This document shows positions 1,521-61,595 of a stretch of 64,000 bases of DNA, piece by piece. Location: assembly GCA_018716885.1 (NCBI GenBank), contig DVJI01000012.1, positions 175,065 to 239,064 of the forward strand. The letters run 5' to 3'. The stretch comes from Candidatus Enterousia intestinigallinarum (lineage in GTDB: Bacteria; Pseudomonadota; Alphaproteobacteria; Rs-D84). How positions within the stretch are numbered: the first letter of the stretch is position 1; each line of letters begins with the position of its first letter. The notes beneath the pieces were generated by a model. It ran no database searches and was not told the origin of the DNA. It saw nothing but the letters and a program-made list of their open reading frames with translations. The position numbers were made by a program, and so were the translations under genes.

Positions 1521-2408
1521 TTAATAAAAACAATGACTATCAAGTTCAAAAGTTCCTTCGGTAGCATTAATAGTCGCATTGCTTGAAATATAACAACCTG
1601 TTATAGATGTATCTCGTGCTAAACGTTTTATATAACCGTCGCCGTATTTTCCTTGATACAACGGACATTTAATGCAACTGGTTGGGCCAAAACCTGAAGA
1701 AACCGGACCATTATAATATCCTGGATTATCATCACACCGATACTCATAAGAACATTTACCTGCTTCGGTACAGGTTACCACTTTTAACAAGCCAGGTTTC
1801 TTATCAGGATCTACGGGCGTGCCCCCCACGACCCATCCTTCACACTGGCTCGCCCGGGTACATTCTCTCGTGTCCTCACAATAAGCCCCCTCAAACGGTC
1901 CATTTATGCATCCATTTATTTCCACATTTTGCAAAACTTGCTTATAACCCGTTTGGCATACATCACAATATTCTATGGGGCCCACCCAACCAAAGTTGTT
2001 TGTACTTAACCATCTGCGTTCACCACTGACACAACCATTTTCATTAGAAATAGGTTCAGTATATCCCCACTCATCATAGCATATATCAGTAGAACTATCA
2101 TTAGCCACACATTCATAGTATTTTAAATCGCCACAGTTTTGCCCCGGCAAGGTTCCGCTGAGTTTCTTGCTATAACCCAATGTACACTCAGCACATTCCC
2201 GATATGCAATGGTTGGTTTTCCGATGCCCGTACCATAACATCGACGGGCAACATCTGGTTTTTCACCAACATTTTGTACCGCACAATTTGCGGGTTCAAG
2301 TGGGCCAATTGTATGAATAGATTCTGGGCACGAGTTCCCATATTGATTTGTTTCCAAACACATCAAAGCATTTGCATTGCTTGCCATACCTAAATACAAA
2401 CACAAACC
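1521..2408 (-). CDS. Cys-rich secreted protein body lacking its own RBS/ATG; completed in frame by inversion of cassette 2409-2494
   Basis: Many Cys. Begins with a signal-peptide h/c region (GLCLYLGMASNANA). C-terminal GCY...EGTFELDSHCFY motif. Confidence 0.8.
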   Translation of the reverse strand, partial: GLCLYLGMASNANALMCLETNQYGNSCPESIHTIGPLEPANCAVQNVGEKPDVARRCYGTGIGKPTIAYRECAECTLGYSKKLSGTLPGQNCGDLKYYECVANDSSTDICYDEWGYTEPISNENGCVSGERRWLSTNNFGWVGPIEYCDVCQTGYKQVLQNVEINGCINGPFEGAYCEDTRECTRASQCEGWVVGGTPVDPDKKPGLLKVVTCTEAGKCSYEYRCDDNPGYYNGPVSSGFGPTSCIKCPLYQGKYGDGYIKRLARDTSITGCYISSNATINATEGTFELDSHCFY

Positions 2409-2494
2409 ACCGTTTTATTTCGGCAAAAATGGAGGATAAAAAAATGCAGAAATCTGGGATTTTTACAAAAATAAAAACACCGATTTTAATCGGT
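2409..2494 (+). promoter_or_regulatory. putative invertible 86-bp RBS/start/signal-peptide cassette, copy 1 (OFF orientation)
   Basis: GGAGG 2431-2435 and ATG 2444 encode MQKSGIFTKIKTPILIG antisense to the gene. Inverted repeat AAACCACCG 2404-2412 / CGGTGGTTT 2491-2499. Near-identical copies at 5587-5672 and 60625-60710. Confidence 0.8.
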
Positions 2495-2517: not shown

Positions 2518-2546
2518 ATTATATCCAATATTTCTATATATCGCAA
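2518..2546 (-). promoter_or_regulatory. sigma70-type promoter TTGCGA-17-TATAAT pointing into cassette 1
   Basis: Consensus-like hexamers with 17-bp spacer immediately outside the cassette. Confidence 0.6.
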
Positions 2547-4980: not shown

Positions 4981-5586
4981 TTATTCAGAATAATAACACT
5001 TTTGGGTTAAATCATATATTCCTGTTTCATCGTATATCCCAGTTCCTGGTTCCATATAACAGCCCGTTATATCATCCAAATTGGCTTCACTGCTGGTTGT
5101 TCTATACTGCGACCCCCACAGGTCAATAAAACTGGGGCACTCTTTGCAGCCGATATCCGTACCACCAATGGAAGGCTCATAATAAGTTACATACCATCCT
5201 GATGCACAGGCCCGATCGTCCCCTATTTGAGAAACGGTGCAATATTTTTCCAAATATCCACCAGTAAAAACAAAATGCTTTTTTCTGACCACGCCATCCA
5301 AATATGGATCTGCTTCCCAGTCATATATTGGGAAATTATATTCGCACATGCACACAGAACAACCGGTTTCTTCTGCTTCATAACTGGCTCGGTATACAAA
5401 GGTGTCTTCAGTTGCGGACACAATACAACTAGTATCACTGGAACTGGTGCACATATCCAAGTTATTATATAAAACATTCCATTCTTTATAATCACTGCCA
5501 CAGTTGCAAGTATACTCGGTTGGTTCGTTTGGTGCAGCATTAGACATATTGCATATAAATATTAATGCAATTGCAGAACATAATTG
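4981..5586 (-). CDS. Cys-rich secreted protein body lacking its own RBS/start; completed by inversion of cassette 5587-5672
   Basis: Frame extends 5' of ATG 5547 as QLCSAIALIFICN (h-region) but meets an in-frame TAA inside the cassette. C-terminal GCY..PG...DETGIY....CYY. Confidence 0.8.
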   Translation of the reverse strand, partial: QLCSAIALIFICNMSNAAPNEPTEYTCNCGSDYKEWNVLYNNLDMCTSSSDTSCIVSATEDTFVYRASYEAEETGCSVCMCEYNFPIYDWEADPYLDGVVRKKHFVFTGGYLEKYCTVSQIGDDRACASGWYVTYYEPSIGGTDIGCKECPSFIDLWGSQYRTTSSEANLDDITGCYMEPGTGIYDETGIYDLTQKCYYSE

Positions 5587-5672
5587 ACCGATTTATTTCG
5601 GCAAAAATGGAGGATAAAAAAATGCAGAAATCTGGGATTTTTACAAAAATAAAAACACCGATTTTAATCGGT
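5587..5672 (+). promoter_or_regulatory. putative invertible 86-bp RBS/start/signal-peptide cassette, copy 2 (OFF)
   Basis: GGAGG 5609-5613, ATG 5622; inverted ends ACCGATT 5587-5593 / AATCGGT 5666-5672. Confidence 0.8.
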
Positions 5673-5700: not shown

Positions 5701-5730
5701 ATTTTACCCCAATTTCCACGCCCACGTCAA
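5701..5730 (-). promoter_or_regulatory. promoter TTGACG-18-TAAAAT pointing into cassette 2
   Basis: Same hexamers and GAAATTGGGG spacer end as at 60567-60596. Confidence 0.6.
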
Positions 5731-13077: not shown

Positions 13078-13088
13078 AAACCAAACAA

Positions 13089-14893: not shown

Positions 14894-14945
14894 AAAAATG
14901 CGGGGAAAATCGTCCCCGCATTAAAATATTCAACAATAAGAAAAC

Positions 14946-15101
14946 TTATTTTTCATTCTGGGTATTATGCACATTTACACCGCGCGCCATAAATTCGGCC
15001 GCCAAATTTACCGCCGCAATACCCTTTTTATATCCGGCACCGTGCGATTTTCCCTGTAATGTCGCCGTTGCCTTTGCAAACTTGTTCGTGTTTTCCGTCA
15101 T
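14946..15101 (-). CDS. small hypothetical protein (51 aa, MTENTNKFAK...)
   Basis: ATG preceded by AGAGG, TTGACA-type promoter upstream, below the ORF-track cutoff. Confidence 0.45.
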   Translation of the reverse strand: MTENTNKFAKATATLQGKSHGAGYKKGIAAVNLAAEFMARGVNVHNTQNEK

Positions 15102-15198
15102 ATTCAATGCCTCTTTACAAACATCTCTCTGACAAGGCCAATATATACTAATAATTATTTTTTGTCAAGTATTTTTATATATTCCCCTGCCCGACAAA

Positions 15199-16779
15199 TT
15201 ATTGTGTACAGCCGTACATACCGCATACCGACGCATCATCCGGCGCAACATATTCTTCAACCACGGCAATAGGAACCTGGACTTGCTTGCCTGGTTCTTC
15301 GGTATAGTGCACTTCTTTGACCACACGGACACGGCGGTTTGCGGCCTTGGCTACACCGTCGCCCGTCTGGACGGCCAAACCTTCTTCACCGGCGGAAACC
15401 GCGACAATCTGGCTGGCCGGGATACCATATTTAATCAGCATTTTCTGAACCGCTTCGGCACGACGTCCGCCCAGGGCATAATTGTAATCCTTGCTGCCCA
15501 TTGTATCAGTGTGCCCGACAACAGAAACCTTGATATTCTTGCTGCCCTGTGTCGCAGTGGCCAGTTGTTTAATAATTTCTTCGTATTCTGGTTTGATTGT
15601 CGCCTTGTCAAAGTCGAACATAATTTCGAACACTTCTTCCATCACGTGCTGTTTCGGTTCCAATGGAATCTGTTGCACTTTGATAAATGTTTTTTCGTAT
15701 GTTTTTTCATTTGCACTGGCCTGCAATTTATCCAGCCGTTCATTTATCGCCGCCAATTCCGCACGCATAGCCATCATCATATTGATAAATTCTTCGCGTG
15801 TGACCAATTCATCACTGATTTGTGGAATTTCCTGGGTTGCGGTTGTATCGGTGGCCGCCGGCGTTGTCGCGCTTGGCACGCAATTCACATCGCCACGTGT
15901 GCATTCGGTAACACTGCTGTCATTGACATTATTGCTGTCACTGATTGTTTTGTCACCACCATAAATATTCTGGTTAAAGACCATCGGCTGAACAGGCACC
16001 GGATTTATCAAGTGTTCCGGCACATTGACGTTATTTACGATAATCACGCCTTCGCGCGCTTTGCCCGTACCGTTCATAGCCGACATATTACGTGTATCCG
16101 GATAATAAGTTTGCGCTGTTGGCGTGGCACCACGTTCAACCGCAACCATAACATCACCGTTTGTGGTCATAGTTGTCTGGGTTGTTTCAGTTGTCGTTTC
16201 AGACGTTGTTTTTACAATCTTGCCACCAGTGCAGTCGCGCAACGCGGTCATAGTTTTATAATATCTGTCGCGGCATTCGTTCGCGGTACCGGTCTGACCA
16301 CTGGCCGACGCCGACAACCAACAGTCATATTTTGCCTGTGCTTCGGCCGCCAATTCTGGATTAGTCATACTGGCGTCATTTTTCAACTGATCCAGCAATT
16401 CATTATATGCGGTGTACAGTTCAAAAGATTCCTGTTCATCCGCCACGGGCCAGTTATCCAATGCCTCTGGGAAAGGCAATTCACCTGAAAACGCAGCAAC
16501 CGCTTTTTGTGCGAAGTATTCGCCCATATCAGGATACCCACTGGTGCGCGCATTATAAATTGCATACGAACGATAATTCATCGCCAACTGATTCAAAAAG
16601 GAATCCTGATGCGGTGCGGAATAGACATCCAAGCTTTCCACATAATCGACGGTTGGCGTTGATGCACCGGCGTATTCCGTGTTATCACCACTGCCCGCAC
16701 AGGCCGCCAAAGTCGCAACCGACACAATGGCCAGCACACGTGAAATAACAAATGTTGACGTCAAAGATTTGTTTTTCAT
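15199..16779 (-). CDS. OmpA-family peptidoglycan-binding lipoprotein
   Basis: Lipobox LAAC; C-terminal FDFDKA...VGHTD...YN..L..RRA..V...NRRV domain. Confidence 0.9.
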   Translation of the reverse strand: MKNKSLTSTFVISRVLAIVSVATLAACAGSGDNTEYAGASTPTVDYVESLDVYSAPHQDSFLNQLAMNYRSYAIYNARTSGYPDMGEYFAQKAVAAFSGELPFPEALDNWPVADEQESFELYTAYNELLDQLKNDASMTNPELAAEAQAKYDCWLSASASGQTGTANECRDRYYKTMTALRDCTGGKIVKTTSETTTETTQTTMTTNGDVMVAVERGATPTAQTYYPDTRNMSAMNGTGKAREGVIIVNNVNVPEHLINPVPVQPMVFNQNIYGGDKTISDSNNVNDSSVTECTRGDVNCVPSATTPAATDTTATQEIPQISDELVTREEFINMMMAMRAELAAINERLDKLQASANEKTYEKTFIKVQQIPLEPKQHVMEEVFEIMFDFDKATIKPEYEEIIKQLATATQGSKNIKVSVVGHTDTMGSKDYNYALGGRRAEAVQKMLIKYGIPASQIVAVSAGEEGLAVQTGDGVAKAANRRVRVVKEVHYTEEPGKQVQVPIAVVEEYVAPDDASVCGMYGCTQ

Positions 16780-16870
16780 AAAAACTTCCTTTCTGTAATC
16801 CCTTACATTATACGATTTTTTGACATATGAGTAAAGTGAAAAAGTACACCCGAATAACGGGCGTTTTTTA

Positions 16871-17689
16871 TTAGTTTGCAAATAACGATGTTGCAAATGC
16901 ACCAATGGAACCAACCGATGATGTCACCCCACCGCCCCCGGATATTCCGGACACTACATCCATTATAGAACTGGTATTTGTTGGCTGCCCCAGTGAATTT
17001 ATTGTTCCCGTCAGGAATTCACCCCACATTTCGCGCTTTTTCGCCGACAATCTGGAATAAGAACAGGATTCTATTTTAGACATCAATCGTCCCGCCATTG
17101 TCAATTCGGACGGCGCATAATCTTCTTCGCTAAAATCTACCAAGTTGAAAATATCGTAAATATTGGAAACGGTCACCTTGTTTTTTTCGGAACACGAAGA
17201 CGCAGGTCCGCCATCGGAACAATATGTCGCCACCCCAACCTTTGGGAAGTTTTCCCATACCATACCCGCGTTCCCGTCACCACCGAAATAGTCATAACAT
17301 ATCGTTTCATCTAAATCGGTTCCGGCGGCAATTTCAACCGAACTCTGATATCCACCGACGGCAACACTGCAACGTTCACGCCCCAGTCGTTTTTTTACCT
17401 CGTCCGCGGTCATTGCACCGGTTTTTGCCCATTCCTTGACAATATTATCAACAAAAGCTATTTCCTGGCTGCTGGGGATACATCCCGCGGTCAGTTCTTT
17501 TTGTTTTGCACTCAACTGCTGAACACTGCTGATTAAATTCAGAACGGTTGGTACCAAACTGGTCGCGCTGCCAGACGCAGATGATTCCACGGGTGCGACG
17601 GGCGCGGCCTTGTTTATCGTGACCGCCCCGGCCGTTGTACCGGCCAAGCATACAAATCCACCGACAAAAAGCAGTAAAAACTTTTTCAT
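16871..17689 (-). CDS. hypothetical secreted protein
   Basis: 272-aa ORF with signal peptide and several Cys. Confidence 0.75.
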   Translation of the reverse strand: MKKFLLLFVGGFVCLAGTTAGAVTINKAAPVAPVESSASGSATSLVPTVLNLISSVQQLSAKQKELTAGCIPSSQEIAFVDNIVKEWAKTGAMTADEVKKRLGRERCSVAVGGYQSSVEIAAGTDLDETICYDYFGGDGNAGMVWENFPKVGVATYCSDGGPASSCSEKNKVTVSNIYDIFNLVDFSEEDYAPSELTMAGRLMSKIESCSYSRLSAKKREMWGEFLTGTINSLGQPTNTSSIMDVVSGISGGGGVTSSVGSIGAFATSLFAN

Positions 17690-17769
17690 CTCTCTTGGGA
17701 TAAATTATAGCATAAAAAAAGTTTAGAATAAATATAAAAATTGCTTTTTTATTATAGGCGCGCTAAACT

Positions 17770-18255
17770 GTGCGCGTGCAAGGCGATAAACGCAATTTTA
17801 TAATATTCACAAAACACAGACGGTTAAAGCGTCTGTGGCAATTTTTCTTTACCGGCTGGGGTCTGGTTATGGTGGCGGCGTTGATTGCAGGTTCGCTGTT
17901 CACGCGCCAGTTGCTGTGGACGCCAATATCTGCGATAAATATGACCGACATTGTCAGTAACCAGTTCAAAATGTCAAACGCATCTTTTTCTGGCACTGAC
18001 AAAAACGGCGAACCGTTTCGTATTCACGCGCGCAGTGGCCGCCAGGAATACGACCGTCCAAACGTAATTTTACTGGAATACGTTTCGGGCACAACAACGC
18101 GAATATCCAACGGCCAGAAAATAACAGATAACATAACCGCCGACGCGGGCGAATACGATCGCGTGAACAAAACAATAACCCTGACGGACAACGTACACGT
18201 TGATTCCAGCAACGGCGATAAAATCAGAACAGACGAATTGGTGATAAAACTATGA
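17770..18255 (+). CDS. lptC: LPS export protein LptC-like
   Basis: N-terminal TM, FSGTDKNGEPFRI.A, beta-jellyroll pattern; overlaps the start of lptB. Confidence 0.75.
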   Translation: MRVQGDKRNFIIFTKHRRLKRLWQFFFTGWGLVMVAALIAGSLFTRQLLWTPISAINMTDIVSNQFKMSNASFSGTDKNGEPFRIHARSGRQEYDRPNVILLEYVSGTTTRISNGQKITDNITADAGEYDRVNKTITLTDNVHVDSSNGDKIRTDELVIKL

Positions 18256-18980
18256 AACAATCGGTACTGCGTGTTGAACACTTATCCAAATCATACGGCA
18301 AGCGTATGGTTATCAAAGACATTTCGATGGAGGCGCACCAGGGCGAATCGGTCGGCCTGTTGGGTCCGAACGGCGCGGGCAAAACAACCGCGTTTTATTG
18401 CATAACGGGTCAGTTGAGTGCCACCGGCGGACAAATATTCTTAAATTCCCAGGACATAACCCACCTGCCGTTTTATCAGCGCGCACGCCTGCACATTGGA
18501 TATTTACCCCAGGAAAACAGTGTTTTCCGCGGATTGACGGTTGAACAAAACATTATGGCAATTTTAGAAGTTGTCGAACCCAGCAAAAAAAAGCGTCAAA
18601 AAAAATTAGATGCATTACTGGACGAATTTTCTATAACCGCCCTGCGCCGCAGTCCGGCAACCGCACTGTCGGGTGGCGAACGTCGCCGCGTTGAAATTGC
18701 GCGCGCACTGGCAAACGACCCGAAATTTATATTGTTGGACGAACCGTTCGCCGGAATTGACCCGATTGCCGTGAACGAAATTCGTGACTTGGTGTCCCAG
18801 TTAAAAAATCGTGGTCTGGGCGTTATAATAACCGACCATAACGTACGTGAAACATTGGGTATTACAGACCGCAGTTATGTTCTGCACGACGGCAAGATAC
18901 TAAAACACGGCACAACCCCGGAAATCGTCAAAGACGAAATGGTGAAAAAGGTCTATCTGGGCGAAGATTTCGTTATGTAA
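18252..18980 (+). CDS. lptB: LPS export ABC transporter ATP-binding protein
   Basis: GPNGAGKTT, LSGGERRRVEIARAL, LDEPFAGIDP, ITDHNVRETL. Confidence 0.97.
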   Translation: MKQSVLRVEHLSKSYGKRMVIKDISMEAHQGESVGLLGPNGAGKTTAFYCITGQLSATGGQIFLNSQDITHLPFYQRARLHIGYLPQENSVFRGLTVEQNIMAILEVVEPSKKKRQKKLDALLDEFSITALRRSPATALSGGERRRVEIARALANDPKFILLDEPFAGIDPIAVNEIRDLVSQLKNRGLGVIITDHNVRETLGITDRSYVLHDGKILKHGTTPEIVKDEMVKKVYLGEDFVM

Positions 18981-19049
18981 CCACGGCAACTCACAACTGA
19001 AATGTTTATCTTGCGGGGTTTGGTCCCGCTTCAATGCGGGACACCCCAT

Positions 19050-19328
19050 TTATTCCAACGGACAGGCGGATGTAAATTCATATGAACCTGTGTCATCTGT
19101 ATATGTTGTATTCGTTGGCGCATACATAATGCACGAACCGGCGGGTGATGACACCAGACAACTGTCCGCCGTACCGGCGGATGTATATCCAGCGGGACAC
19201 GTGCTGTCCGCGATTTCCATATATTCTTCCACCACGGTAACATAACCCGTGGGACACGAAGTGGACGGCGCGGCGGCAAATGCGCCAATCGGCGCAATCG
19301 CCATAATTAAAATAAATATTCGTTTCAT
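19050..19328 (-). CDS. small Cys-rich secreted protein (paralog of 13334-13714)
   Basis: Signal peptide; near-identical core to 13334-13714. Confidence 0.8.
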   Translation of the reverse strand: MKRIFILIMAIAPIGAFAAAPSTSCPTGYVTVVEEYMEIADSTCPAGYTSAGTADSCLVSSPAGSCIMYAPTNTTYTDDTGSYEFTSACPLE

Positions 19329-19340
19329 ATTCGCCCCCGT

Positions 19341-19763
19341 TTAGTCAGATAGTCCACTAAACAGCGCCGACCGGAAAGCGGAGGGGTACCGAGCGTTGGA
19401 CGCACAGTTGTACGCGCAATAGCTCGCGCAACGGCCGGCGGACGTGGAAGAGATGACGAACACCCAAGACGAAACCGCGGGCGAAACCATTTTGCACCAG
19501 CAATATTTGTTATCGTCGATGGTTGAACTGATCGTGACAGATTCGGTTGTTGCACCAATTGAACCACCATTTTGAGAACCGCAAAATGCAACACCCTGAA
19601 TTTCTATACCGCCACAGGTTATTGACCAATTTGACTGATCATACGCACCAGAGTGACTTGTACACGTTGTTGACGACGTTAGTTTTACGCATTTTGTGAC
19701 TGCATACGCTGGTGGAATTGATGCCGCACAAATTATGCCGGCGATTATTAAATGTTTTTTCAT
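19341..19763 (-). CDS. Cys-rich secreted protein (paralog of 13714-14148)
   Basis: RBS AGGAGG, MKKHLIIAG signal peptide, YCWCKMVSPAVSSWV. Confidence 0.85.
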   Translation of the reverse strand: MKKHLIIAGIICAASIPPAYAVTKCVKLTSSTTCTSHSGAYDQSNWSITCGGIEIQGVAFCGSQNGGSIGATTESVTISSTIDDNKYCWCKMVSPAVSSWVFVISSTSAGRCASYCAYNCASNARYPSAFRSALFSGLSD

Positions 19764-19960
19764 TCTAAACCTCCTTTTTTTCATTGCGAATGAAAAAACC
19801 ACCAAAATATTTCAGGTGGTTGGAGGTTCGAAACTATGCAAGATAGTGTTGCTTATTCGATATATTCGCAACCCTCCAACCAAAAGTGGAGGCGATATTT
19901 TATGTCATCTCTGACACTTGCACGGGTTTCGACACCCCATTGATGAAATACTCATCAACG
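19764..19960 (-). ncRNA. c4/CI-like structured leader, copy C
   Basis: Boxes CGAAAC/GTTTCG and TGCAAG/CTTGCA; stem GGTTGGAGG/CCTCCAACC; ACCACC/GGTGGT+T terminator. Confidence 0.65.
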
Positions 19961-20050
19961 TTTTTTATGTTACCACAGGCATCAATTAAATCAACAGCAA
20001 AGTTTTACACTTTGGGCTTTCCAAATAAAAAACCGGGATTTACCCGGTTT

Positions 20051-36160: not shown

Positions 36161-37996
36161 ATGAAAATTGTACGTACATTTTTAATATTTTGCGCTATCG
36201 CAGTGACCGCATCAAATGCGGGCGCGTTTCAAATTTCGCCACAAACGTCTAATAAAAACTGTACTGACACGGAATACAGAAGACAGCACCCAGAAAAATG
36301 CCCATCTTTTTTGTACACTGCGGCACCGATATTATCGGGTGCAACCGTACTGGGTGGCGCGATCGCACTAATTGGCTTGTCTGGGGCTGCGGGTGGAAGC
36401 GACAGTGCCACGGAATATTACCAGCCCACCCTGGCCGCACCGGACTATGTAGGTGGCGACGTAAGTTCATTACAACTGGCCGCGGTAACATCGGCACCAG
36501 AATACGAAAAAAATCTGACACAGTATAACGACATACGTCTGGCGTATTCTATTGCACGCGGATACACAGGACGCGGCACAATAATTGCCGTTTTGGACGC
36601 TGGTCTGGATTCTTGGCACGGGGCGGCCGTCACGGCCGTGGCCGGTGGTGCCATTGCACCAAACGCAATCGTAAATTCATATAAAATCGCCAATAATCTG
36701 GATTTCGTTTCATACCGTGAAATTGGTGATGCAATCGGACACGCGACAGACGCAAACGTATATAACGCCAGTTGGTCTGTGCCAATGCGTGCAAATGATT
36801 TGCGGTCGCGCAATCAACTGTCAAATCTGACCGATGCAAATTTTGTGAACCAAATGTCCGCGGCAGCCGCGCGCGACGCAATATTTGTATGGGCCGCTGG
36901 CAATGATTCCGACAAACAAAGCAGTGCCCTGTCCGCGATACCAGTTGTAATGCCTGAAATGCGCGGTCACTTTATAAACGTTGTTGCCTGGGACAGCGCA
37001 ACGGGCGCCCTGGCCGAATACAGCAACGCGTGCGGTATAACCGCCAACTGGTGTATAACAGCCCCGGGCAGCAACATAGACACCGGCGCATCAATCGCCA
37101 ACGGCACCAGTTTTGCCACCCCGATAGTATCTGCCGCCGTTGCCGTAATACGCGAAGCATTTCCCTATATGACCGCGCCCCAGATAACAAATTTATTGTT
37201 TGAAACAGCGCGCGATTTGGGCACGCCCGGCGTTGACGCCGTCTACGGTCACGGAATGCTGGATTTGGAACGCGCAACGCGCCCGGTTGGCGCGCCCCTT
37301 GTACCCATAGATGGCGGCGCAATGCAACCATTACAAACGGCGCGTGTATCTGGTGCGATTGCACATAACATAATGGACGCCAACCCGAAATTTGCATACT
37401 TTGACAAATACGGGCGTGCATTTGACGCAAAATTATCAGATGTTATTGAAATAAAAAATCCGGGACTGGGATTTCAGCGTCTGCGCGCAACAGAAGACAT
37501 AAAAATTGCAGAAATTGGAAATTTTGAAATGGGACTGGCCAACAGCGATATCGCCATCGGCGACGGATTTTTGCAAATACGCGACAATAATCTGTTTGGA
37601 TTTGTCGGCACACAAAATGATTTTGAAATCGGGCAATTAAAATTGACCCAGCGCGCCCGCCTGGCGTTCGGGGCGCCACGCGCATCACAAAATTCGATGA
37701 TAAGCAACCTGTCGAACATATATACCGCGTCAATCGATGTATCTGCCAATATCGGCGACTGGTCATTCGGCATATCTGTTCCGGACACGATAATTGGTGG
37801 CACAATGAATTTACACCTGCCAACGGGGCGCGCGGACAACGGCGCCATAATATATAATGATTACGCAGTTGATATGCGTACGCGTCCATCAATCGAATAT
37901 TCTGTATCATATCGAGCTTTTACCGCCAGTTTTGTTGACAATCCATACGGCACGGATGAATTTTTCATTATGACCCGCGGCCGTATAAAGTTCTAG
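36161..37996 (+). CDS. S8 (subtilisin-like) secreted serine peptidase
   Basis: Triad motifs VLDAG, HG, GTSFATP; AAGN oxyanion hole; YGHG.LD. Confidence 0.92.
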   Translation: MKIVRTFLIFCAIAVTASNAGAFQISPQTSNKNCTDTEYRRQHPEKCPSFLYTAAPILSGATVLGGAIALIGLSGAAGGSDSATEYYQPTLAAPDYVGGDVSSLQLAAVTSAPEYEKNLTQYNDIRLAYSIARGYTGRGTIIAVLDAGLDSWHGAAVTAVAGGAIAPNAIVNSYKIANNLDFVSYREIGDAIGHATDANVYNASWSVPMRANDLRSRNQLSNLTDANFVNQMSAAAARDAIFVWAAGNDSDKQSSALSAIPVVMPEMRGHFINVVAWDSATGALAEYSNACGITANWCITAPGSNIDTGASIANGTSFATPIVSAAVAVIREAFPYMTAPQITNLLFETARDLGTPGVDAVYGHGMLDLERATRPVGAPLVPIDGGAMQPLQTARVSGAIAHNIMDANPKFAYFDKYGRAFDAKLSDVIEIKNPGLGFQRLRATEDIKIAEIGNFEMGLANSDIAIGDGFLQIRDNNLFGFVGTQNDFEIGQLKLTQRARLAFGAPRASQNSMISNLSNIYTASIDVSANIGDWSFGISVPDTIIGGTMNLHLPTGRADNGAIIYNDYAVDMRTRPSIEYSVSYRAFTASFVDNPYGTDEFFIMTRGRIKF

Positions 37997-38628
37997 GCAA
38001 CTTCATTATTCGCCACCTGTTCTGGTATATCGGACACCAAACCGCGTTCTTCAATAAACTTTGACAAAGTATCCCGATGCACCCGCAAACGCCGTGCAAT
38101 TTCCTTTTTTTTACTGCCGTCGGCTAATTTTTGAACAATATATTTCTCACGTCCTTCTAACTTGCAGGCATTGCGACTGCCCTGGGGGCGGCCGACACGT
38201 TTACCTTCGGCACGAACACGGGCCAATGCTTCCTTGGTTCGTTGCGAAATCAAATTGCGTTCAATTTCCGCAGACAACCCGAACGCAAAGGCCAAAACTT
38301 TACTGGTTATATCAGACCCCAACCGATAATTATCCTTTATCGTCCATATTCGCGCACCAATGTTCATACAATGATGCAAAATACTCATTATTTGTAATAA
38401 ATTACGCCCAAGCCGTGACAGCTCGGACGCAATTATTAAATCATCTTTTTGAATTCTTTTTATCAACCGTCCTAATTTTCTTTTATTCAGGTCTTTGGTC
38501 GCGGAAATAGTTTCTTCTATCCAACAATCGATTACCAAGTCCTGCTTTTCACAAAACTTTTGGATTTCAAATCGCTGATTTTCCGTTGTTTGGTGGTCAG
38601 TCGACACACGTATATAGCCATATATCAC
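37993..38628 (-). CDS. serine DNA invertase, Mpi (multiple promoter invertase) family
   Basis: YGYIRVST catalytic motif, Q..ENQRFEI, SELSRLGRNL, WTIKDNYRLG.DI.SKVLAFAFGLSAEIERNLISQRTKEALAR (recognised as Mpi-like), C-terminal HTH; GTG start with AAGGAG. Confidence 0.9.
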   Translation of the reverse strand: MIYGYIRVSTDHQTTENQRFEIQKFCEKQDLVIDCWIEETISATKDLNKRKLGRLIKRIQKDDLIIASELSRLGRNLLQIMSILHHCMNIGARIWTIKDNYRLGSDITSKVLAFAFGLSAEIERNLISQRTKEALARVRAEGKRVGRPQGSRNACKLEGREKYIVQKLADGSKKKEIARRLRVHRDTLSKFIEERGLVSDIPEQVANNEVA

Positions 38629-38806
38629 GATACACTCCTTTGGCTGTTTGGCAGATACACGTATCTCTCCCCCGCGAATGCGGCACCCTGTTGCTTATGA
38701 CAAAAATCCTAAAGTTAAAAATCGCAGTCGCAAAAATTTAATTATTTATCTTGTAATATTGACCAGCCCCGTCTATGATTGCTGTATCAACAGGAAGGGG
38801 TATTTT

Positions 38807-41800
38807 ATGCAACGCAAAATGCAATCCAAAACAATCCGAAAAAATGCTGCTGCACGCACATCGCGTCCACGTGTTACGAAACAAAACACGCATCGTATAT
38901 GGCGAACCGTCGCCTGGATTGCGGGTGCGATTGCACTGATTGGAATAATTGCGCTCATTTGGTGGCGCGCCAGTACATCGGAAACAGACGTCACAAAACT
39001 GACGGCGACGGCAACCGCGCCGGCGGTTCAAACGTTCACCGATGACAACACTATGTTTTTTGCAACCCAAAACAGCATCCCAGACGTGAATAATGACCGT
39101 GAACTGACCCCGCCAGCAGACGCAATGATTTCATACACGCTGGAATCTGGTCCGTATGCACCAGCATTCAAAATGAACCTGGTTGATGCGGATTTGTCGG
39201 ACCAGGTAAAAATTACCCCGTTTATACGTGGCACGTGGCATTTTCGCGGATCTAATAATTTATCATTTGCGCCGGACGGCACCTGGCCAGCGGGAACAAA
39301 GTTCACAGTTCGAATAAATCCGGCCTTGATAAACGACGATGTGCGTGATGCACCAACACGCTTTACTTTCACTACACCGGATATCACAGCCACGGTTGAT
39401 AACTTTAACCTGTATCCTGCCCTGGACGACGCCAAATCGGTTATTGGTGTTGCGGTAATATCGTTTGATTATGAAATTGATACGACTGATTTCGCGGATA
39501 AAGTATCAATGAAACTGGACGACAAGAAACTGGACTTTACTGTAAAGTTCGACCGCTTTCGCCGTACTGCGTTTATAATATCAGCACCAGTAAAAATAAC
39601 CAACAACGCGCAGATTATGCGGGTAAAACTAAATCGCATACCTGCATTGGACGGCGATTCCAAAACACAAAAATTGACCGCAAATGTAACAGTTGATGCT
39701 GCCGACAATATTTTCAAAATATCATCGCTGGACACGACTGTTGCCGATGACAATGACGGCAACGCACAACAGTTGATATTGCTTGACACCACGACGGCCG
39801 CGCGTGATAACACCGATTGGTCACAATATATCACTGTATATTTATTACCGACTTACCGTGACGACGAAGAACGCACCGCACAGCGTGTGCATATATGGGC
39901 TGACGATGAAATAACAGAAGACGTATTATCAGAATCAAAAAAACTGGATATAAAACAGATGGATTTTGCCACCGCACGCGGTGTTTATCAGTATGCTTTT
40001 TCATACGATGTATCCGACAAGCAAACACGATACATCTATGTTGATGTAAAACCTGGGGCTTTATCTGCAACTGGATTTGAAATGAAAAACGGCGACACAT
40101 CCGTAATGCGTGTTCCATATCCGACCGCATCTGTTCAGATTGCCGGGTCCGGCGCACTGTTGTCATTGGCCGGCGGACGCGAATTGGGAATTGTCGCCCG
40201 TGGCGGTGTCGATACGGCGTACGTGAACCTGTACAAAGTAAAATCCGAAGAAATAAATCACCTGATATCCCAAACATACAATGTGTTTGCATCAAATATG
40301 GAATTTAAGTCCTGGGCATTTGGCGTATATGATATGTCTGTGGTGTTTCAAAAGCGAATTTCTTTTGTAAATCCGTCTATGAAATCAGCTAATTATGCAT
40401 CTATTGACCTGGGCGATTATCTGGACAGAACATACGGTGACAATACCGGCATATTTATAATCCAGACCGGCACATCAGAAAATGCCGCTGAATATAACGA
40501 CAAACGTTTAATACTGCTGACTGATTTAGGAATTATACGCAAAGTAAATATGGATAATTCATCCGTGGTATTTGTGTCAAACTTATCAACTGGCACACCG
40601 GCGGCGGATGTGGAAATTTCTGTTCTGGGACGCAACGGCAATAATGTTTGGGCCGGTCGCACTGATGCCAACGGGCGCGCGGAAATTCCGGCACTGCCGT
40701 GGTCAGAATATCGTAACGCGCGCGAACCCGTCGCAGTTGTTGCACGACGTGGCGATGATATTGCGTTTATACCATACAATGCATATAACCAGCACGTAGA
40801 ATATTCAAAATTTGATGTTGACGGCGTGTACGCATCAGCATCAACACCACTGAACGCATTTATGTTTTCAGACCGCGGAATTTACCGTCCGGGTGAACAG
40901 TTAGTCCTGGGCGGAATTGTAAAAAACAAATCTTTCAAATCACTTGCTGGGATTCCAGTACGTCTGCAAATGCGTGACGCACGCGGTCGCATTACATTAG
41001 AAAAAACATTTTCACTGACCGCGGACGGCTTGTTCGATATAGAATATAAAATTCCAGATGATGCGACACTGGGAACCTGGAACACATATTTATACTCGCT
41101 GACCGCAAATGACAAATTGGCTGATATGCTAGGTACCGTAACTTTCGACGTTCAGGAATTTGTCCCTGACACAATGAAAATAACGGCCAATATTGCGGGC
41201 GCATCAGAAAACGGCGGTTGGGTTGCACCGTCAAACCTGCGGGCAACTGTATCATTGCGCAATTTGTTCGGTACACCGGCAACAAATCGACGCATTGCCG
41301 CACGCGCAACATTGACGCCGGTCGAATATTCTTTTGATAATTTTGCCGGATATAAATTTACGCCTAACTTTATTTCTGATACTGGGCTGTCAACAAATAC
41401 GGCACGCCGTATCCAGACATATTCTGTTGAACTGCCTGATATGCGAACGGACGACAACGGCGCCGCAACACTGGACATACAATTCGACAGAATTATACCA
41501 TCGGGTACATACACACTGGCACTGAACGTACGCGGATTCGAATCGAATTCTGGCACCAGTGTCCAAACAAATATCACCACCCGCGTATCCGATGCAAAAT
41601 ATCTGGTTGGTTGGCGTGCTGATGGCGACACATCATATATAAACAAAAACACCGTACGCAAAATCAAACTGATTGCTGTTGACCACACCGCAACACCGAT
41701 TGCAGCGGACGGGTTAAAATTGCGCATACTGCGCCGCGAAAACCAAACCACACTGGTCAAAGATTATAATAACTACTATAAATACCAGACCGTATCCCGC

Positions 41801-44614
41801 GACAAAACCGTTTCGCAAACCGCACTGGATATACCCGCGGATGGCGCAACAGTAACACTGGACACAAAAACTGGCGGAACATATTTTATGCAGGTTTTGG
41901 ACGCCGCGGATAAAATTCTGGCCAGTGCTGAATATTATGTTGCTGGTGGCGAAAACGTATCAATGACTTCAGATACGCCCGCCGATTTACAAATAAAACT
42001 GGACGCATCAGAATATGCCCCTGGCGATGATATCGCGGTCAGCATAACCGCCCCGTACACAGGTGCCGGATTGATAACAATAGAACGCGACAAAGTGTAC
42101 GCTTACAAATGGTTTAACACAAAATCCACATCTTCGGTTCAGCATATAACCGTTCCCGCCGGATTTGAAGGCACTGGGTACGTCAACGTATCGTTTGTTC
42201 GTGATATAAACAGTCGTGACATATTCACCACGCCATATGCATACGCCGTCGCGCCATTTTCGGCCGACACATCCGCACGAAAAATAGATATAAAGTTGAA
42301 TACGCCGGATGTCGTACGCGACAATAAATTGACCGTGCAATACACAACAAACCGTGACGTACGCATAATGCTGTTTGCCGTCAACACCGGAATCTTACAG
42401 GTTGCAAATTACCAGATTCCAAACCCGCTGGCACACTTTTTCCAGAAATCAGCATTACAGGTGAACACATATCAAATACTGTCACTGCTGTTGCCGGAAT
42501 ACAAAATTCTGCGCGAATATGCCAAAACCGGCGGTGGCGACTATGGTGGCGACGGTGCCGTAAACCTGATTCAAACAAATCCGTTTGGACGTCGCACCCA
42601 GGCACCCGTTGCGTTCTATTCAAAAATTTTGAACGCACGCGCAAACACAACGGACAGCGTAACGTTCGATATTCCCGAATACTTTAACGGCGCGGTTCGT
42701 GTGTTTGCAGTTGCCGCAAACACCAGCGCGGTCGGCGCGGCAGATACTGAAGTATATGTACAATCACCGATTGTAATATCAACGTCCGCCCCACTGTTTG
42801 CGGCTCCAAACGATACGTTTGAAATAAACAGCGTCGTAACAAATATGACCGAAAACAGCGGCGCCAACGCAAAAATATCACTGGCGGCGACGACATCTGG
42901 TGGGCTGAATTTAACTGGTGCCACAACTATGTCTGATACAGTTGCAGAAAATGCGGAAAAATTATTTACTTTCCCTGTTCGCGCAACAGACACATTGGGC
43001 AACGCAGAAATCAAATTGAATGCCACATTAAACACGGATGACAAAACATTGGCCACACGTGAAAATACAACAACATTGTCCGTGCGTCCGATAACGACAT
43101 ATACAACAAATATAACGTCTGGTATTGTGGATTCACGCGATACAACCGTGTCCGATTTTAATATTGATATGTATCCGGAATTTGCGACACGACACCTGTA
43201 CGTATCGCACGGTGCGGGCGCAATGGCAATGCCGTTGTTTGAATATCTGGCACATTACGATTATCCCTGTACTGAACAACTGGTATCGCGCGCAATTCCA
43301 TATGCGGTAATGCCGGATAATAAAATACTGGGGACAACACGTTCAGAATCCGCCAAAAAAATCGCGGACACCGTGAACACCCTGCGTAATCGCCAGAACG
43401 ATGACGGGTCATTTGCATTGTGGTCTGGTGGCGCAACAACACGTGATAACCGATTCGATTCGGATACGGCGTATCTGACCGCATATGTAACGCAATTCCT
43501 GATCATTGCGCGTGACGCTGGATTTACTGTTCCAACACAAATGCTGTCACGGGCGGTGGATTTTCTGCGCACATTTGCGGGTGGCAATATAATTGACGCC
43601 GAATATGCCCGTGCCGCCGCATACGCAATATATGTAATTTCCGAAAATGGATATGTTACGACCAGTTACATAGACGCCCTGACCCAGTACGCAGATGAAA
43701 ACATCAAAAACTGGCGCGAAACATTGACTGGGGCATATATCGCTGCGGCGTATAAAATCCTGAAACAGGATGATTTGGCACGCGATTTGATATCGGAATA
43801 CGGCACATCGCGCAACACACGTTTTGAATACAGTGCAATGTTTGACAATAATGTTGCAAACGACGCAATGTATTATTACCTGACCAACAAATTATTTGCG
43901 TCACAGAATCCAACCGAATCCGATGTCTTGCGTGAATATGTCAAATCTGGGACATTTGACGCGTACACATCCGCCGTGGTAATTATGGCACTGGCCGGCG
44001 ATTCGACCGCCGCGGTCAAAACAGGTGACATCACAGTTACAACTAATTCACAAATTGTACCAGTTGTAACAGACAGCGCGGACGGCGTTACGGCCAAAAT
44101 CCCCGCCGATGCAACCAAAATCAATATCACCTGTGCCGAATGCAACGATGCAACACGTATGTATTATACCCTGGTACAACAAGGTTATCCGACGGAATCG
44201 CGCGCCGCGACAAACGGTTTGGATATAACACGCGAATATTACAACGCTGACGGCGACAGAATAACACAAGCAAATATCGGCGACATTGTAACAGTGCGCA
44301 TATCGGCCCGTACACGCGGCGGCACTGATATTGCGGAAAACATTGCGATTACGGACCTGTTACCCGGCGGATTTATTGCAAACGCGGATTCTGTCACTGG
44401 CACCCCGGAATATTTCGAGGTTCGCGAAGACCGCGTCCTGATATATGCCGACCTGACACGCGAAGTCACAGAATTCACCTATACAGTTCAGGTTGGCGCG
44501 TCCGGTACATTTGCAATTCCAGCAATTTCCGCGGAATCTATGTATAATCCACAGATACGCGCCACCGGACACACAGGAACATTTACGGTATTAAATGAAA
44601 CATCTGAAAGATAG
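38807..44614 (+). CDS. bacterial alpha-2-macroglobulin
   Basis: SDRGIYRPGE, QEFVPD, thioester CTEQ, QN.DGSF.LW, DLLPGG, REDRV; followed by pbpC. Confidence 0.95.
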   Translation: MQRKMQSKTIRKNAAARTSRPRVTKQNTHRIWRTVAWIAGAIALIGIIALIWWRASTSETDVTKLTATATAPAVQTFTDDNTMFFATQNSIPDVNNDRELTPPADAMISYTLESGPYAPAFKMNLVDADLSDQVKITPFIRGTWHFRGSNNLSFAPDGTWPAGTKFTVRINPALINDDVRDAPTRFTFTTPDITATVDNFNLYPALDDAKSVIGVAVISFDYEIDTTDFADKVSMKLDDKKLDFTVKFDRFRRTAFIISAPVKITNNAQIMRVKLNRIPALDGDSKTQKLTANVTVDAADNIFKISSLDTTVADDNDGNAQQLILLDTTTAARDNTDWSQYITVYLLPTYRDDEERTAQRVHIWADDEITEDVLSESKKLDIKQMDFATARGVYQYAFSYDVSDKQTRYIYVDVKPGALSATGFEMKNGDTSVMRVPYPTASVQIAGSGALLSLAGGRELGIVARGGVDTAYVNLYKVKSEEINHLISQTYNVFASNMEFKSWAFGVYDMSVVFQKRISFVNPSMKSANYASIDLGDYLDRTYGDNTGIFIIQTGTSENAAEYNDKRLILLTDLGIIRKVNMDNSSVVFVSNLSTGTPAADVEISVLGRNGNNVWAGRTDANGRAEIPALPWSEYRNAREPVAVVARRGDDIAFIPYNAYNQHVEYSKFDVDGVYASASTPLNAFMFSDRGIYRPGEQLVLGGIVKNKSFKSLAGIPVRLQMRDARGRITLEKTFSLTADGLFDIEYKIPDDATLGTWNTYLYSLTANDKLADMLGTVTFDVQEFVPDTMKITANIAGASENGGWVAPSNLRATVSLRNLFGTPATNRRIAARATLTPVEYSFDNFAGYKFTPNFISDTGLSTNTARRIQTYSVELPDMRTDDNGAATLDIQFDRIIPSGTYTLALNVRGFESNSGTSVQTNITTRVSDAKYLVGWRADGDTSYINKNTVRKIKLIAVDHTATPIAADGLKLRILRRENQTTLVKDYNNYYKYQTVSRDKTVSQTALDIPADGATVTLDTKTGGTYFMQVLDAADKILASAEYYVAGGENVSMTSDTPADLQIKLDASEYAPGDDIAVSITAPYTGAGLITIERDKVYAYKWFNTKSTSSVQHITVPAGFEGTGYVNVSFVRDINSRDIFTTPYAYAVAPFSADTSARKIDIKLNTPDVVRDNKLTVQYTTNRDVRIMLFAVNTGILQVANYQIPNPLAHFFQKSALQVNTYQILSLLLPEYKILREYAKTGGGDYGGDGAVNLIQTNPFGRRTQAPVAFYSKILNARANTTDSVTFDIPEYFNGAVRVFAVAANTSAVGAADTEVYVQSPIVISTSAPLFAAPNDTFEINSVVTNMTENSGANAKISLAATTSGGLNLTGATTMSDTVAENAEKLFTFPVRATDTLGNAEIKLNATLNTDDKTLATRENTTTLSVRPITTYTTNITSGIVDSRDTTVSDFNIDMYPEFATRHLYVSHGAGAMAMPLFEYLAHYDYPCTEQLVSRAIPYAVMPDNKILGTTRSESAKKIADTVNTLRNRQNDDGSFALWSGGATTRDNRFDSDTAYLTAYVTQFLIIARDAGFTVPTQMLSRAVDFLRTFAGGNIIDAEYARAAAYAIYVISENGYVTTSYIDALTQYADENIKNWRETLTGAYIAAAYKILKQDDLARDLISEYGTSRNTRFEYSAMFDNNVANDAMYYYLTNKLFASQNPTESDVLREYVKSGTFDAYTSAVVIMALAGDSTAAVKTGDITVTTNSQIVPVVTDSADGVTAKIPADATKINITCAECNDATRMYYTLVQQGYPTESRAATNGLDITREYYNADGDRITQANIGDIVTVRISARTRGGTDIAENIAITDLLPGGFIANADSVTGTPEYFEVREDRVLIYADLTREVTEFTYTVQVGASGTFAIPAISAESMYNPQIRATGHTGTFTVLNETSER

Positions 44615-54456: not shown

Positions 54457-54591
54457 GAAAAATCCGGCATTATGCCGGATTTTTTATGCCGAAAATAACC
54501 ACAGTTTGGTTTTGTTGCTTTTATCATTTGACAGTACGGCGAGAAACGTGCAAAAATTTAATCATAAAAGCGCTATACGGCGGGGGAATAA

Positions 54592-59829: not shown

Positions 59830-60510
59830 CTATTCCTCATAATGGCAATTACCATTTACAATCTGAAATTTTCCATTGCTGTCACCAGAATATGTATTTA
59901 CTGGTATATAGCAAGCCCCAATATTCAATGGACATAAATTTGGATCTGTCATACCTGGTATCATCATCATAATTCCACCTTCTGGTTGAGAATACCTTTT
60001 ATAATTCGGGCATTCTGGACAAGTGTATTCTGTTATCATTCCTGTCAATCCGGGGGCCATATAAGTATTTGTTACAGGATAATGCATTACATTGCAGCAG
60101 ACACTTACACCATCTGAACAAGTTGCATTTTCTGGACATTCAGCACACCGCATAGCCGACCCGCCACCGACACTGGTTCTATAGTACCCATCGGGATTAC
60201 AGCGATATACACACGTTCCATCTTCGGCAGCTGAATCACATTGCGTTTGTAATCCATTACCAATGTCTTTCCAGGATGGTCCAAAATATCCCTCGCAAGA
60301 TTGCCCTTTGCACGCAGTAATAATAACGCTGCCGCCACCGCAATACGCATCACACTGGCTAGACGATGGCGCACAACACACATCCTGGCCAATTTGTACT
60401 GTACCGCAGACCACCCACCCAATACCAGGACAGTTATTCAGGGATGTCGTCGCCATTGCACCAGATGTAATCATTATACCAGCAAATAAAATAAACCATT
60501 TCATAACCAT
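59830..60510 (-). CDS. Cys-rich secreted protein
   Basis: RBS GGAAAGGA, signal peptide, C-terminal ACYIP.N...DSNGKF....NCHY. Confidence 0.85.
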   Translation of the reverse strand: MVMKWFILFAGIMITSGAMATTSLNNCPGIGWVVCGTVQIGQDVCCAPSSSQCDAYCGGGSVIITACKGQSCEGYFGPSWKDIGNGLQTQCDSAAEDGTCVYRCNPDGYYRTSVGGGSAMRCAECPENATCSDGVSVCCNVMHYPVTNTYMAPGLTGMITEYTCPECPNYKRYSQPEGGIMMMIPGMTDPNLCPLNIGACYIPVNTYSGDSNGKFQIVNGNCHYEE

Positions 60511-60566
60511 ATTCCTTTCCCTTTGCGCCGAAAACAAACGGTCGATAAGGAACGTCAAAAATGGTG

Positions 60567-60596
60567 TTGACGCAGACGCAGAAATTGGGGTAAAAT
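60567..60596 (+). promoter_or_regulatory. promoter TTGACG-18-TAAAAT pointing into cassette 3
   Basis: Conserved with 5701-5730. Confidence 0.6.
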
Positions 60597-60624
60597 GAAA
60601 TTAAACAAATGCCGAAAATAAACC

Positions 60625-60710
60625 ACCGATAAAAATCGGTGTTTTTATTTTTGTAAAAATCCCTGATTTCTGCATTTTTTTACTCCCCATTTTTGCCGAA
60701 AAAAATCGGT
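60625..60710 (-). promoter_or_regulatory. putative invertible 86-bp RBS/start/signal-peptide cassette, copy 3 (OFF)
   Basis: Minus-strand GGGGAG + ATG (60675) encoding MQKSGIFTKIKTPIFIG; ends ACCGAT 60625-60630 / ATCGGT 60705-60710. Confidence 0.8.
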
Positions 60711-61595
60711 CAGTTTTGTACGGCATTTATTTCGGGATTATTGATTACATCAACCAGTATTGCGACCCCCGGTGTTACAGATGCTGGCCAGTATAGTAAT
60801 ACCTGCGAACAGCAAACTTGCGATGTTATTACCCATCCACAACAAGATACTTCGGGTACCCTACCCGCAAGTATCGTCGAATGTGCAACCGGGACAGATC
60901 TTTGCTATTCATCCGGTTATATGGGGAATTTAAGTGGCCACAGAAAAACATCTTGTACCAGTTGTCCATCTGGCTATGAGTTAAAAGAAGTATCTGGCGT
61001 ATCAACAAAGCAACGTGATTGTCGCGTAACATATAATATATGCGTTGCCGAACCAGAAGATCCATTGGAAAACTGTCCATCAAATTGCAAATATGCAACC
61101 TGGACCACCGACACCAGCCAGGTCGGTCGTCAAAAACGCTGCAATACAACAAATGGCAAGTGTGAATACAGATGCATTCCGAATTTTTATGATGCGTCCG
61201 CACTTACTGGTGGAACATATTGCCGCCCGTGTCCAGATAATGTGCTGGCCGAAGCTTGTTCAGGATATGATGTAGAATACGGTACATTATGCTGTGAACG
61301 TGGGTATTATATGCAGACCGAAGAAAAATCTACATCATCTGGCGGCATTATAATAGGTACAAGATATTATGACGTTACTTGCCCGCGTTGTCCGTCGTTG
61401 GGCGGAGTGTACGGAACGACACCGATAAATACGTGTGTAAGCTCTGTTACTGCCTGTTATATACCGGCAAACACGTCGATTCGTGACACAGTCGGCACAT
61501 ATCAGTTCACCAGCAACTGTAGATATACCACAACCGGAACAAGCACAGGTACCATAACACCAGTTCAACCAGGTACAGTTGTCGGAACAAATTAG
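60711..61595 (+). CDS. Cys-rich secreted protein body; completed by inversion of cassette 60625-60710 (ORF-track TTG start at 60693 has no RBS)
   Basis: Begins QFCTAFISGLLITSTSIA (h/c region); C-terminal ACYIPAN...DTVGTY....CRY. Confidence 0.8.
   Translation, partial: QFCTAFISGLLITSTSIATPGVTDAGQYSNTCEQQTCDVITHPQQDTSGTLPASIVECATGTDLCYSSGYMGNLSGHRKTSCTSCPSGYELKEVSGVSTKQRDCRVTYNICVAEPEDPLENCPSNCKYATWTTDTSQVGRQKRCNTTNGKCEYRCIPNFYDASALTGGTYCRPCPDNVLAEACSGYDVEYGTLCCERGYYMQTEEKSTSSGGIIIGTRYYDVTCPRCPSLGGVYGTTPINTCVSSVTACYIPANTSIRDTVGTYQFTSNCRYTTTGTSTGTITPVQPGTVVGTN

Follow-up and report, generated by a model that had tools for sequence, protein, structure and literature searches.

In the relevant parts of two papers, Mpi of Bacteroides fragilis is described as one unlinked small serine invertase with many dispersed targets (PMC4747536, PMC10403206). 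Here we describe a gene of the same family in a 64,000-nucleotide stretch of contig C10 (the whole stretch is referred to below as the window) from the alphaproteobacterium Candidatus Enterousia intestinigallinarum (genome label G000), together with a set of 84-bp segments, scattered over the genome, that appear to switch the expression of cysteine-rich (Cys-rich) secreted proteins. Judging from its sequence and distribution, the Mpi-family recombinase is probably the best candidate for the enzyme that operates these switches.

The system resembles that of B. fragilis Mpi (ssr2) in the protein family (as assigned by an equivalog hidden Markov model, HMM), in having a single enzyme tied to no one target, and in its many dispersed invertible regions controlling surface or secreted products, a role that is predicted here. 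In contrast to B. fragilis, the host belongs to the Alphaproteobacteria and has a genome of 0.9 Mb, and its protein falls into a separate clade with 60-68% identity to the Bacteroidota members. The segments measure 84 bp, against roughly 170-230 bp for the B. fragilis invertible regions; one class of them would flip a Shine-Dalgarno sequence (SD), an ATG and the start of a signal peptide instead of a promoter, and the predicted targets are Cys-rich secreted proteins instead of polysaccharide operons.

The Hin/Gin/Cin/Pin invertases are small serine recombinases with a C-terminal helix-turn-helix (HTH) that act on inverted dyad sites with a non-palindromic 2-bp centre; each inverts one local segment of about 1-3 kb and requires a Fis-bound enhancer. 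The system described here shares the small serine recombinase with HTH and the inverted dyad sites around a 2-bp centre, whereas its 84-bp segment is too short to accommodate a separate enhancer and its recombinase gene is unlinked to the presumed targets. In the mycoplasma vsa, vsp and vpma systems and in mpl of M. penetrans, inversion joins a start/signal-peptide end or a short promoter to silent surface-protein genes at many loci. Xer-like tyrosine recombinases act in these mycoplasma surface-antigen loci, unlike the serine recombinase considered here, and site architecture and segment sizes differ as well.

Switches acting after transcription start have also been found in Clostridioides difficile, where in contrast they involve the tyrosine recombinase RecV and longer segments; cwpV is one of them. 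The flgB switch of the same species is also described as acting after transcription has started (PMC5386303), and inversions overlapping the 5' end of a gene form a published category, the "partial intergenic invertons", which according to the pertinent passage are mostly shufflons (PMC10028968). A non-exhaustive literature search that excluded supplements found no description of the 84-bp switch system presented below.

An Mpi-family small serine recombinase

The gene under study is the following.

37993..38628, minus strand: Mpi-family small serine recombinase gene, 211 aa, GTG start

An SD (AGGAG) lies 6 nt 5' of the GTG start. The predicted protein has an N-terminal catalytic domain with the active-site Ser (Pfam Resolvase, residues 2-143, 8e-32), followed by a weakly matched C-terminal HTH (HTH_23, residues 164-192, 20.6 bits and thus below the Pfam cut-off of 24.6). 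Against the curated equivalog model NF009949 ("master DNA invertase Mpi family") it scores 305.4 bits, above the cut-off of 272, over residues 2-197 of 211, and 304.9 bits when the model is searched against the whole genome. In an alignment of the recombinase with 40 relatives, hand-picked from 80 homologue loci, R7, S9, R72 and R75 are invariant in all 41 family members. By these sequence measures, 37993-38628 encodes an intact small serine recombinase of the Mpi family; the original prediction had proposed this membership from a close resemblance to the B. fragilis protein, and the HMM search bears it out.

Start-codon cassettes and their target genes

A repeat of about 100 nt, with 3 copies in the window and about 10 in the genome, contains the first class of segments. 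Each of these cassettes carries a GGAGG-like SD, an ATG and 15 codons (MQKSGIFTKIKTPIL-IG), with the putative crossover inside the codons ATC-GGT. The genome has nine of them, of which seven are in what we refer to as the OFF orientation, one is ON (C10:245066) and one is decayed. The three loci in the window (A, B and C) comprise the following features.

2409..2494, plus strand: switch A, central AC at 2409-2410 and GT at 2493-2494, 84 bp; OFF as assembled, a flip giving a 312-aa open reading frame (ORF)
1521..2408, minus strand: predicted target gene A, Cys-rich secreted protein; own SD and ATG absent, the frame continuing from the cassette across the crossover
2518..2546, minus strand: promoter-like site TTGCGA-17-TATAAT, fixed, aimed at cassette A and gene A
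2478-2495, minus strand: terminator-like hairpin, which in the OFF orientation faces the promoter-like site 2518..2546
5587..5672, plus strand: switch B, central AC at 5587-5588 and GT at 5671-5672; OFF as assembled, a flip giving a 218-aa ORF
4981..5586, minus strand: predicted target gene B, Cys-rich secreted protein
5701..5730, minus strand: promoter-like site TTGACG-18-TAAAAT, fixed, aimed at cassette B
60625..60710, minus strand: switch C, ATG on the minus strand, centres at 60625-60626 and 60709-60710; OFF as assembled, a flip giving a 311-aa ORF
60711..61595, plus strand: predicted target gene C, Cys-rich secreted protein

As assembled, the seven OFF cassettes run into a stop after 22-44 codons. 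When they are inverted in silico between the centres, all seven (7/7 intact OFF cassettes) yield ORFs of 160-316 aa, fused in frame and continuing into signal peptides. Loci A, B and C each have, in the fixed flank, a promoter-like site that matches 10 of 12 consensus positions and is directed towards the cassette; when the cassette is OFF, this site is faced by a 7-bp hairpin with a T-run. The target proteins are Cys-rich and have a common conserved C-terminal stretch of about 50-90 residues; Pfam contains no family for the proteins of loci A, B and C, and a search of the protein structure atlas gave no usable match to them (TM score at most 0.32).

Crossover sites and the 84-bp spacing

Within the window, the arm motif TGCCGAAAATAA occurs six times with at most one mismatch, against about 1.0 expected, and none of 100 shuffles reached six. 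This motif is the well-conserved half of a crossover site that appears as a dyad of about 32 bp, in which a central dinucleotide is flanked on each side by an arm of about 15 bp; read towards the centre, the well-conserved arm is TGCCGAAAATAAACC. Eight of the nine cassettes have AC at the left centre and GT at the right, the ninth being the decayed copy with CC at its left centre. As this dinucleotide is not palindromic and reads AC at left and GT at right, the two sites are inverted repeats. The distance between centres is exactly 84 bp in 9/9 cassettes, and likewise 84 bp in the promoter segments at five loci of the genome. The 86-bp cassette of the original prediction is the same element, with both central dinucleotides counted.

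The same arrangement was found in four related genomes. In G003, G015, G017 and G022 the arms differ (e.g., AATCTAAAC in G017), while the AC/GT centres are identical, and elsewhere in the genus the site pairs are 82-86 bp apart with species-specific modes, as read by hand from the listed coordinates. Within a pair, identity between the partners is limited to AAACCACCG (locus A), ACCGAT (locus C) and ACC (locus G); around the centre only ACC(G) is common to partner sites across all loci, and the stretch that the switching loci have in common is about 4 bp. Such a short shared stretch fits a 2-bp crossover and not a 6-8-bp overlap region. Thus cassettes, promoter segments and the sites of the four related genomes all combine a dyad, a non-palindromic 2-bp centre and inverted partners, a geometry that fits a serine invertase and would suit the recombinase at 37993-38628.

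Two other interpretations of these repeats were rejected. The 14-nt CCGA-N6-TCGG palindromes with a T-rich centre were considered as sites, and their partners are in direct orientation, which seems incompatible with inversion; diverged copies in the relatives place the true dyad 7 bp away, centred on AC/GT. A miniature inverted-repeat transposable element with a target-site duplication was considered as well, and here the "direct repeats" proved to be site arms common to all copies, whose flips give in-frame genes. Rfam has no family at the cassettes, and a permissive half-site scan returned 59 matches that were mostly noise. One solitary arm-like motif was recorded in the window:

54487..54502, plus strand: solitary arm-like motif TGCCGAAAATAACCAC, located immediately after a terminator, with gene 54592(+) about 90 nt downstream

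The gene at 54592(+) starts with a signal-peptide-like sequence, and 54487-54502 may be a fossil or locked site.

Orientation variants in nature

Near-identical DNA is present in chicken-gut and other gut metagenome runs, and protein clusters at 90% identity were searched for ON and OFF forms of the target genes. For the gene at C10:245k, 15 of the 40 cluster members are listed. Three of these are ON forms of 286 aa starting MQKSGIFTKIKPS(L/I)LIG-QFCTAIL, four are OFF forms of 275 aa starting MPN(I/T)IG-QFCTAIL, which corresponds to the inverted arm read from a TTG, and the start of the other eight lies past the junction, so that they carry no information on orientation. ON and OFF sequences part precisely at the crossover. 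The cluster of window gene C has 11 members, comprising one of 311 aa (P0024), seven of 300 aa, two of 224 aa and one of 318 aa that reads through the inverted cassette; P0017, the one 300-aa sequence inspected, starts MPKKIG. Among the 15 listed members (of 170) of the gene A cluster, one has 312 aa (P0035) and the other 14 start downstream of the junction. No 218-aa ON form was found among the 15 listed of 37 members of the gene B cluster.

These natural ON forms agree with the flips made in silico. P0024 is identical to flipped gene C at 304/311 positions and P0035 to flipped gene A at 279/312, in both cases with 30/30 identity over the first 30 residues. When the N-terminal 40 residues of the ON protein were used as the query, just one protein was obtained among four candidates.

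At the DNA level, metagenome contigs L160 and L161 are about 98% identical to C10:236.8-251.9 kb and carry the cassette variant of the 245k locus in the orientation opposite to that of G000, with the same kind of centres. Both contigs lack the third site and one gene that G000 has at this locus, namely the signal-peptide gene MSRIKFKL... at G000:C10:245190-245900 (L062), which follows a perfect ON-type dyad. Because of this missing gene and site, the two arrangements differ by more than one inversion, and strain differences at the 245k locus include, besides inversion, an insertion or deletion.

In Logan contigs from four runs (X1, X4, X9 and X15), examined over window positions 1-20000, all of the listed contigs that reach a junction are OFF at A and B, and among them no opposite-strand joint was found at a cassette; the contigs break inside the repeated cassettes. 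Because contigs drop rare variants, OFF-only contigs are compatible with minority ON forms and carry no information on switching within a sample. Taken from the protein and contig sequences, orientation polymorphism at the predicted crossover is present at three loci. The earlier suggestion that the cassettes act as switches is therefore matched by flipped forms in nature, as P0024, P0035 and both orientations of the 245k locus attest, and the cassettes and promoter segments are very likely site-specific inversion switches.

Promoter segments

Four loci have a third site, with an AC centre, at the far end of the 84 bp that follow the right site of the cassette, and these 84 bp contain TTGACG-18-TAAAAT. 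The example in the window lies at locus C:

60541..60626, plus strand: promoter segment Y, centres at 60541-60542 and 60625-60626, TTGACG-18-TAAAAT at 60567-60596; predicted to be invertible
59830..60510, minus strand: divergent member of the Cys-rich family, whose SD and ATG, both its own, lie immediately past the third site; the other gene that segment Y is predicted to serve

Segment Y as assembled points at cassette C. Its 84-bp unit is found again in the genome at three more loci and also at C11:24555-24640, where a site-flanked promoter segment of this length lies between divergent genes. The gene at 59830-60510 has only a sub-threshold Pfam match. As an 84-bp promoter unit lies between sites and a family gene with its own SD and ATG lies beyond the third site, the promoter segments are predicted to toggle between two divergent genes.

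Apart from these, a site-flanked 83-bp element at C13:102900-102999 has two hairpins and no start cassette; it lies about 1.3 kb from a XerD-like gene.

Candidate enzymes and co-occurrence across the genus

The nine cassettes and at least five promoter segments are spread over four contigs, and none adjoins the recombinase gene. Three Resolvase-domain matches were found in the genome: the Mpi-family gene, an intact 530-aa large serine recombinase with Resolvase and Recombinase domains on C6, and a 108-aa fragment on C7. There are also two tyrosine recombinases, with best matches to XerD and XerC, and no IS110/Piv-type gene was found in the genome. Consequently, the Mpi-family gene is the only intact small serine recombinase in this 98%-complete genome.

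The exact motif GTGGTTTNNNTTCGGCA is present in 5 of 41 relatives (10 copies each in G000 and G017, 2 each in G003, G015 and G022), all five of which carry an Mpi match at E 1e-90 or better; four other genomes score above the Mpi family cut-off (E 1e-86 to 1e-95) and lack the exact motif. The search was extended to 201 genomes of the genus with one mismatch allowed in the motif, and the two result tables were compared by hand. At least five motif matches were found in 33 of the 68 genomes with Mpi at E<=1e-86, in 1 of the 80 genomes with only weaker Mpi-like genes, and in 0 of the 53 genomes with no Mpi-like gene at E<=1e-30. In the one genome of the middle group, G189, all matches are chance-like and lie inside coding sequence, and the same is true of G063 and G131. 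In G063 (L162, C1), the orthologue of the peptidase gene that flanks the recombinase gene in G000 is adjoined by an ssb-like gene, with no Mpi there and no true site, and this looks like a genome with neither enzyme nor sites.

Site-rich genomes are thus almost only those with the E<=1e-86 Mpi subtype, in agreement with the co-occurrence that the original prediction had proposed to look for. Its central proposal, that the gene encodes the trans-acting enzyme for the cassettes, is strengthened by this distribution and by the lack of a second intact small serine recombinase, while the link between enzyme and substrate is one that we infer; it is circumstantial but consistent.

A second Mpi-family subtype with lower scores (E 1e-64 to 1e-84) is represented by two to seven genes in many genomes of the genus; it does not accompany the motif studied here, and its genes presumably have their own sites.

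Proposed mechanism and alternative explanations

We propose that an active Mpi-type small serine invertase acts in trans on very short invertible segments across the chromosome. Each of two sites, 84 bp from one another, would bind a dimer; the dimers would come together in a synapse and use Ser9 to cut at the central dinucleotide, after which strand exchange would invert the segment; in this scheme we infer the identity of the enzyme, the cleavage point and the absence of accessory factors. In class 1 (the cassettes), the ON orientation joins an SD, an ATG and 15 codons in frame to the signal-peptide sequence of a Cys-rich protein, with a fixed promoter upstream; in the OFF orientation the gene is left without a start, and a hairpin and T-run are turned towards the promoter. 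In class 2, the segment bears the promoter itself, which would be toggled between two divergent genes of the Cys-rich family.

A more specific version of this proposal is plausible, although we hold it only tentatively. It states that the Mpi-type invertase is specialised for minimal loops of about eight helical turns (84 bp; 82-86 in relatives) and works without an enhancer, the fixed length being that of a loop wrapping the synaptic tetramer. Promoter and start modules of one size would then give two-layer, four-state switches of Cys-rich proteins genus-wide, in which the arms drift and AC/GT stays fixed.

Several observations weigh against the proposal. A segment of 84 bp, with about 54 bp between the inner arms, is very short for serine-recombinase synapsis, as the original prediction had cautioned, and the other arm of each site is poorly conserved. 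No orientation variants of promoter segments flanked by two sites were seen, inversion of this class being predicted only. The ON and OFF forms of the cassettes come from different assemblies. As for co-occurrence, G056 (92% complete) has three real sites and no detectable Mpi; its Mpi region may be unassembled, since queries with the two genes that flank the recombinase gene in G000 also found nothing there. Moreover, 16 of the 68 genomes at E<=1e-86, a split chosen after the bimodal score distribution had been seen, have at most one motif match, and the co-occurrence is confounded by shared ancestry, related genomes being non-independent samples.

Instead of the Mpi-type invertase, the housekeeping XerC-like and XerD-like tyrosine recombinases might flip the segments, in which case the Mpi-like protein would have another substrate. 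Both Xer-type genes are present in the genome, the site dyads can be read as arms plus spacer, and the 83-bp element on C13 lies close to the XerD-like gene. However, a tyrosine recombinase would need a homologous overlap region of 6-8 bp, for which the ACC(G)-only identity of partner sites at the switching loci (about 4 bp in common) is too little, and site abundance tracks the Mpi subtype across the genus, which makes this explanation unlikely.

Slightly less probable still is an origin of the orientation differences in rare, old rearrangements at palindromes, e.g., by replication template switching, with the recombinase unrelated to them. The uniformly OFF contigs of the four runs at loci A and B and the separate assemblies of ON and OFF forms fit such a scenario. 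On the other hand, each of three loci is known in either orientation and its junctions coincide exactly with the centres, site spacing is fixed (84 bp here, 82-86 bp in relatives) with centres conserved while the arms drift, and the in-frame fusion is kept in 7/7 intact OFF loci. Finally, the 530-aa large serine recombinase, though intact and in possession of both domains, is a very improbable invertase for these sites, as a full-length relative is found in only 2/5 site-rich genomes, none was found in G099 with its 17 motif matches, and its best NCBIfam matches, all far below cut-offs, are cassette-chromosome or XisF-type excision recombinases.

Genomic neighbourhood and evolution of the recombinase gene

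Enterousia (order Rs-D84) comprises farm-animal gut bacteria with genomes below 1 Mb, according to a study in whose main text a search by term found no mention of a recombinase or of phase variation (PMC12306168). The genome analysed here measures 919 kb in 13 contigs. The Mpi-type recombinase gene is flanked in it by two genes.

36161-37996, plus strand: Peptidase_S8 gene (Pfam)
38648-44614, plus strand: bacterial alpha-2-macroglobulin (A2M) gene, probable ATG at 38807 (Pfam)

A PBP1C-like gene comes after the A2M gene. The original prediction placed a complete serine recombinase with an HTH between an S8 protease and A2M, and this holds, with the HTH match below cut-off as given above. It had further noted no adjacent transposon or invertible segment, in agreement with our finding that no transposase adjoins the recombinase gene and that the switch sites closest to it are 16-22 kb off (the solitary arm at 54487 and locus C at 60541-60710).

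At 76-90% identity, alphaproteobacterial gut metagenome-assembled genomes (MAGs) supply the nearest homologues of the recombinase; one of these MAGs bears the name Candidatus Enterousia. An S8 and/or A2M neighbour is kept in 14/14 close orthologue loci (seven with both, four with S8 only and three with A2M only, some of these loci ending at contig ends), and in 0/14 of the more distant loci compared (L088-L101, 64-68% identical). Across the close orthologue loci the identity is 76-90% for the recombinase, 46-61% for S8 and 51-64% for A2M. Because the S8/A2M neighbourhood is kept and the identity of the recombinase is above that of its neighbours, the comparison indicates that the recombinase gene is a stable, strongly conserved chromosomal gene and not a mobile-element passenger.

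In a tree of 41 sequences, rooted at midpoint only, the recombinase groups with other alphaproteobacterial MAG sequences in a 14-member clade (support 100/97), which is nested in a larger, mostly alphaproteobacterial group; a Bacteroidota-dominated group is separate (98/93). The phylogeny is thus in line with the expected placement in the Mpi family, within a well-supported alphaproteobacterial clade. In a related genome (L154, G088:C7), the order runs Mpi, ssb, start cassette; the cassette measures 84 bp and is located some 700 bp upstream of Mpi.

Other elements in the window

A different repeated leader element is found at 5926-6054 and 14152-14281, directly upstream of the secreted-protein genes at 6060 (plus strand) and about 14147 (minus strand). 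It consists of inverted repeats with a CAGGAG Shine-Dalgarno (AAAATCAGGAGATT and its complement) about 100 nt apart, which enclose an inner GGTCAGGAGG/CCTCCTGACC pair as well as a hairpin and T-run, and it might serve as an anti-SD or attenuator leader or as a switch of another type.

Runs X9 and X15 have reduced contig depth across 13341-14674, and in one contig of X9 positions 14394 and 14882 are joined on opposite strands. Short repeats resembling ACGAGTAAC and a 19-nt inverted repeat (14522-14540 / 14731-14749) are present within 13327-14882, which is a strain-variable region, unrelated to the cassettes and possibly invertible. Further downstream, paired hairpin repeats with 36-nt arms (81% complementary) occupy 61665-61823, just before a tRNA gene at 61824-61905 on the minus strand.

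Implications

If the proposal is true, surface diversification by a master invertase extends beyond the Bacteroidota, to an uncultured, genome-reduced alphaproteobacterium of the farm-animal gut that keeps the recombinase gene at a fixed, conserved place. The design would be unusual, in that one 84-bp module gives a ribosome-binding site, a start codon and the start of a signal peptide, forms a terminator when flipped, and can adjoin promoter modules of the same size. For synthetic biology, it would offer a very compact invertible part. For the biochemistry of recombination, an inversion substrate of 84 bp would present a testable problem of DNA looping and synapse geometry.

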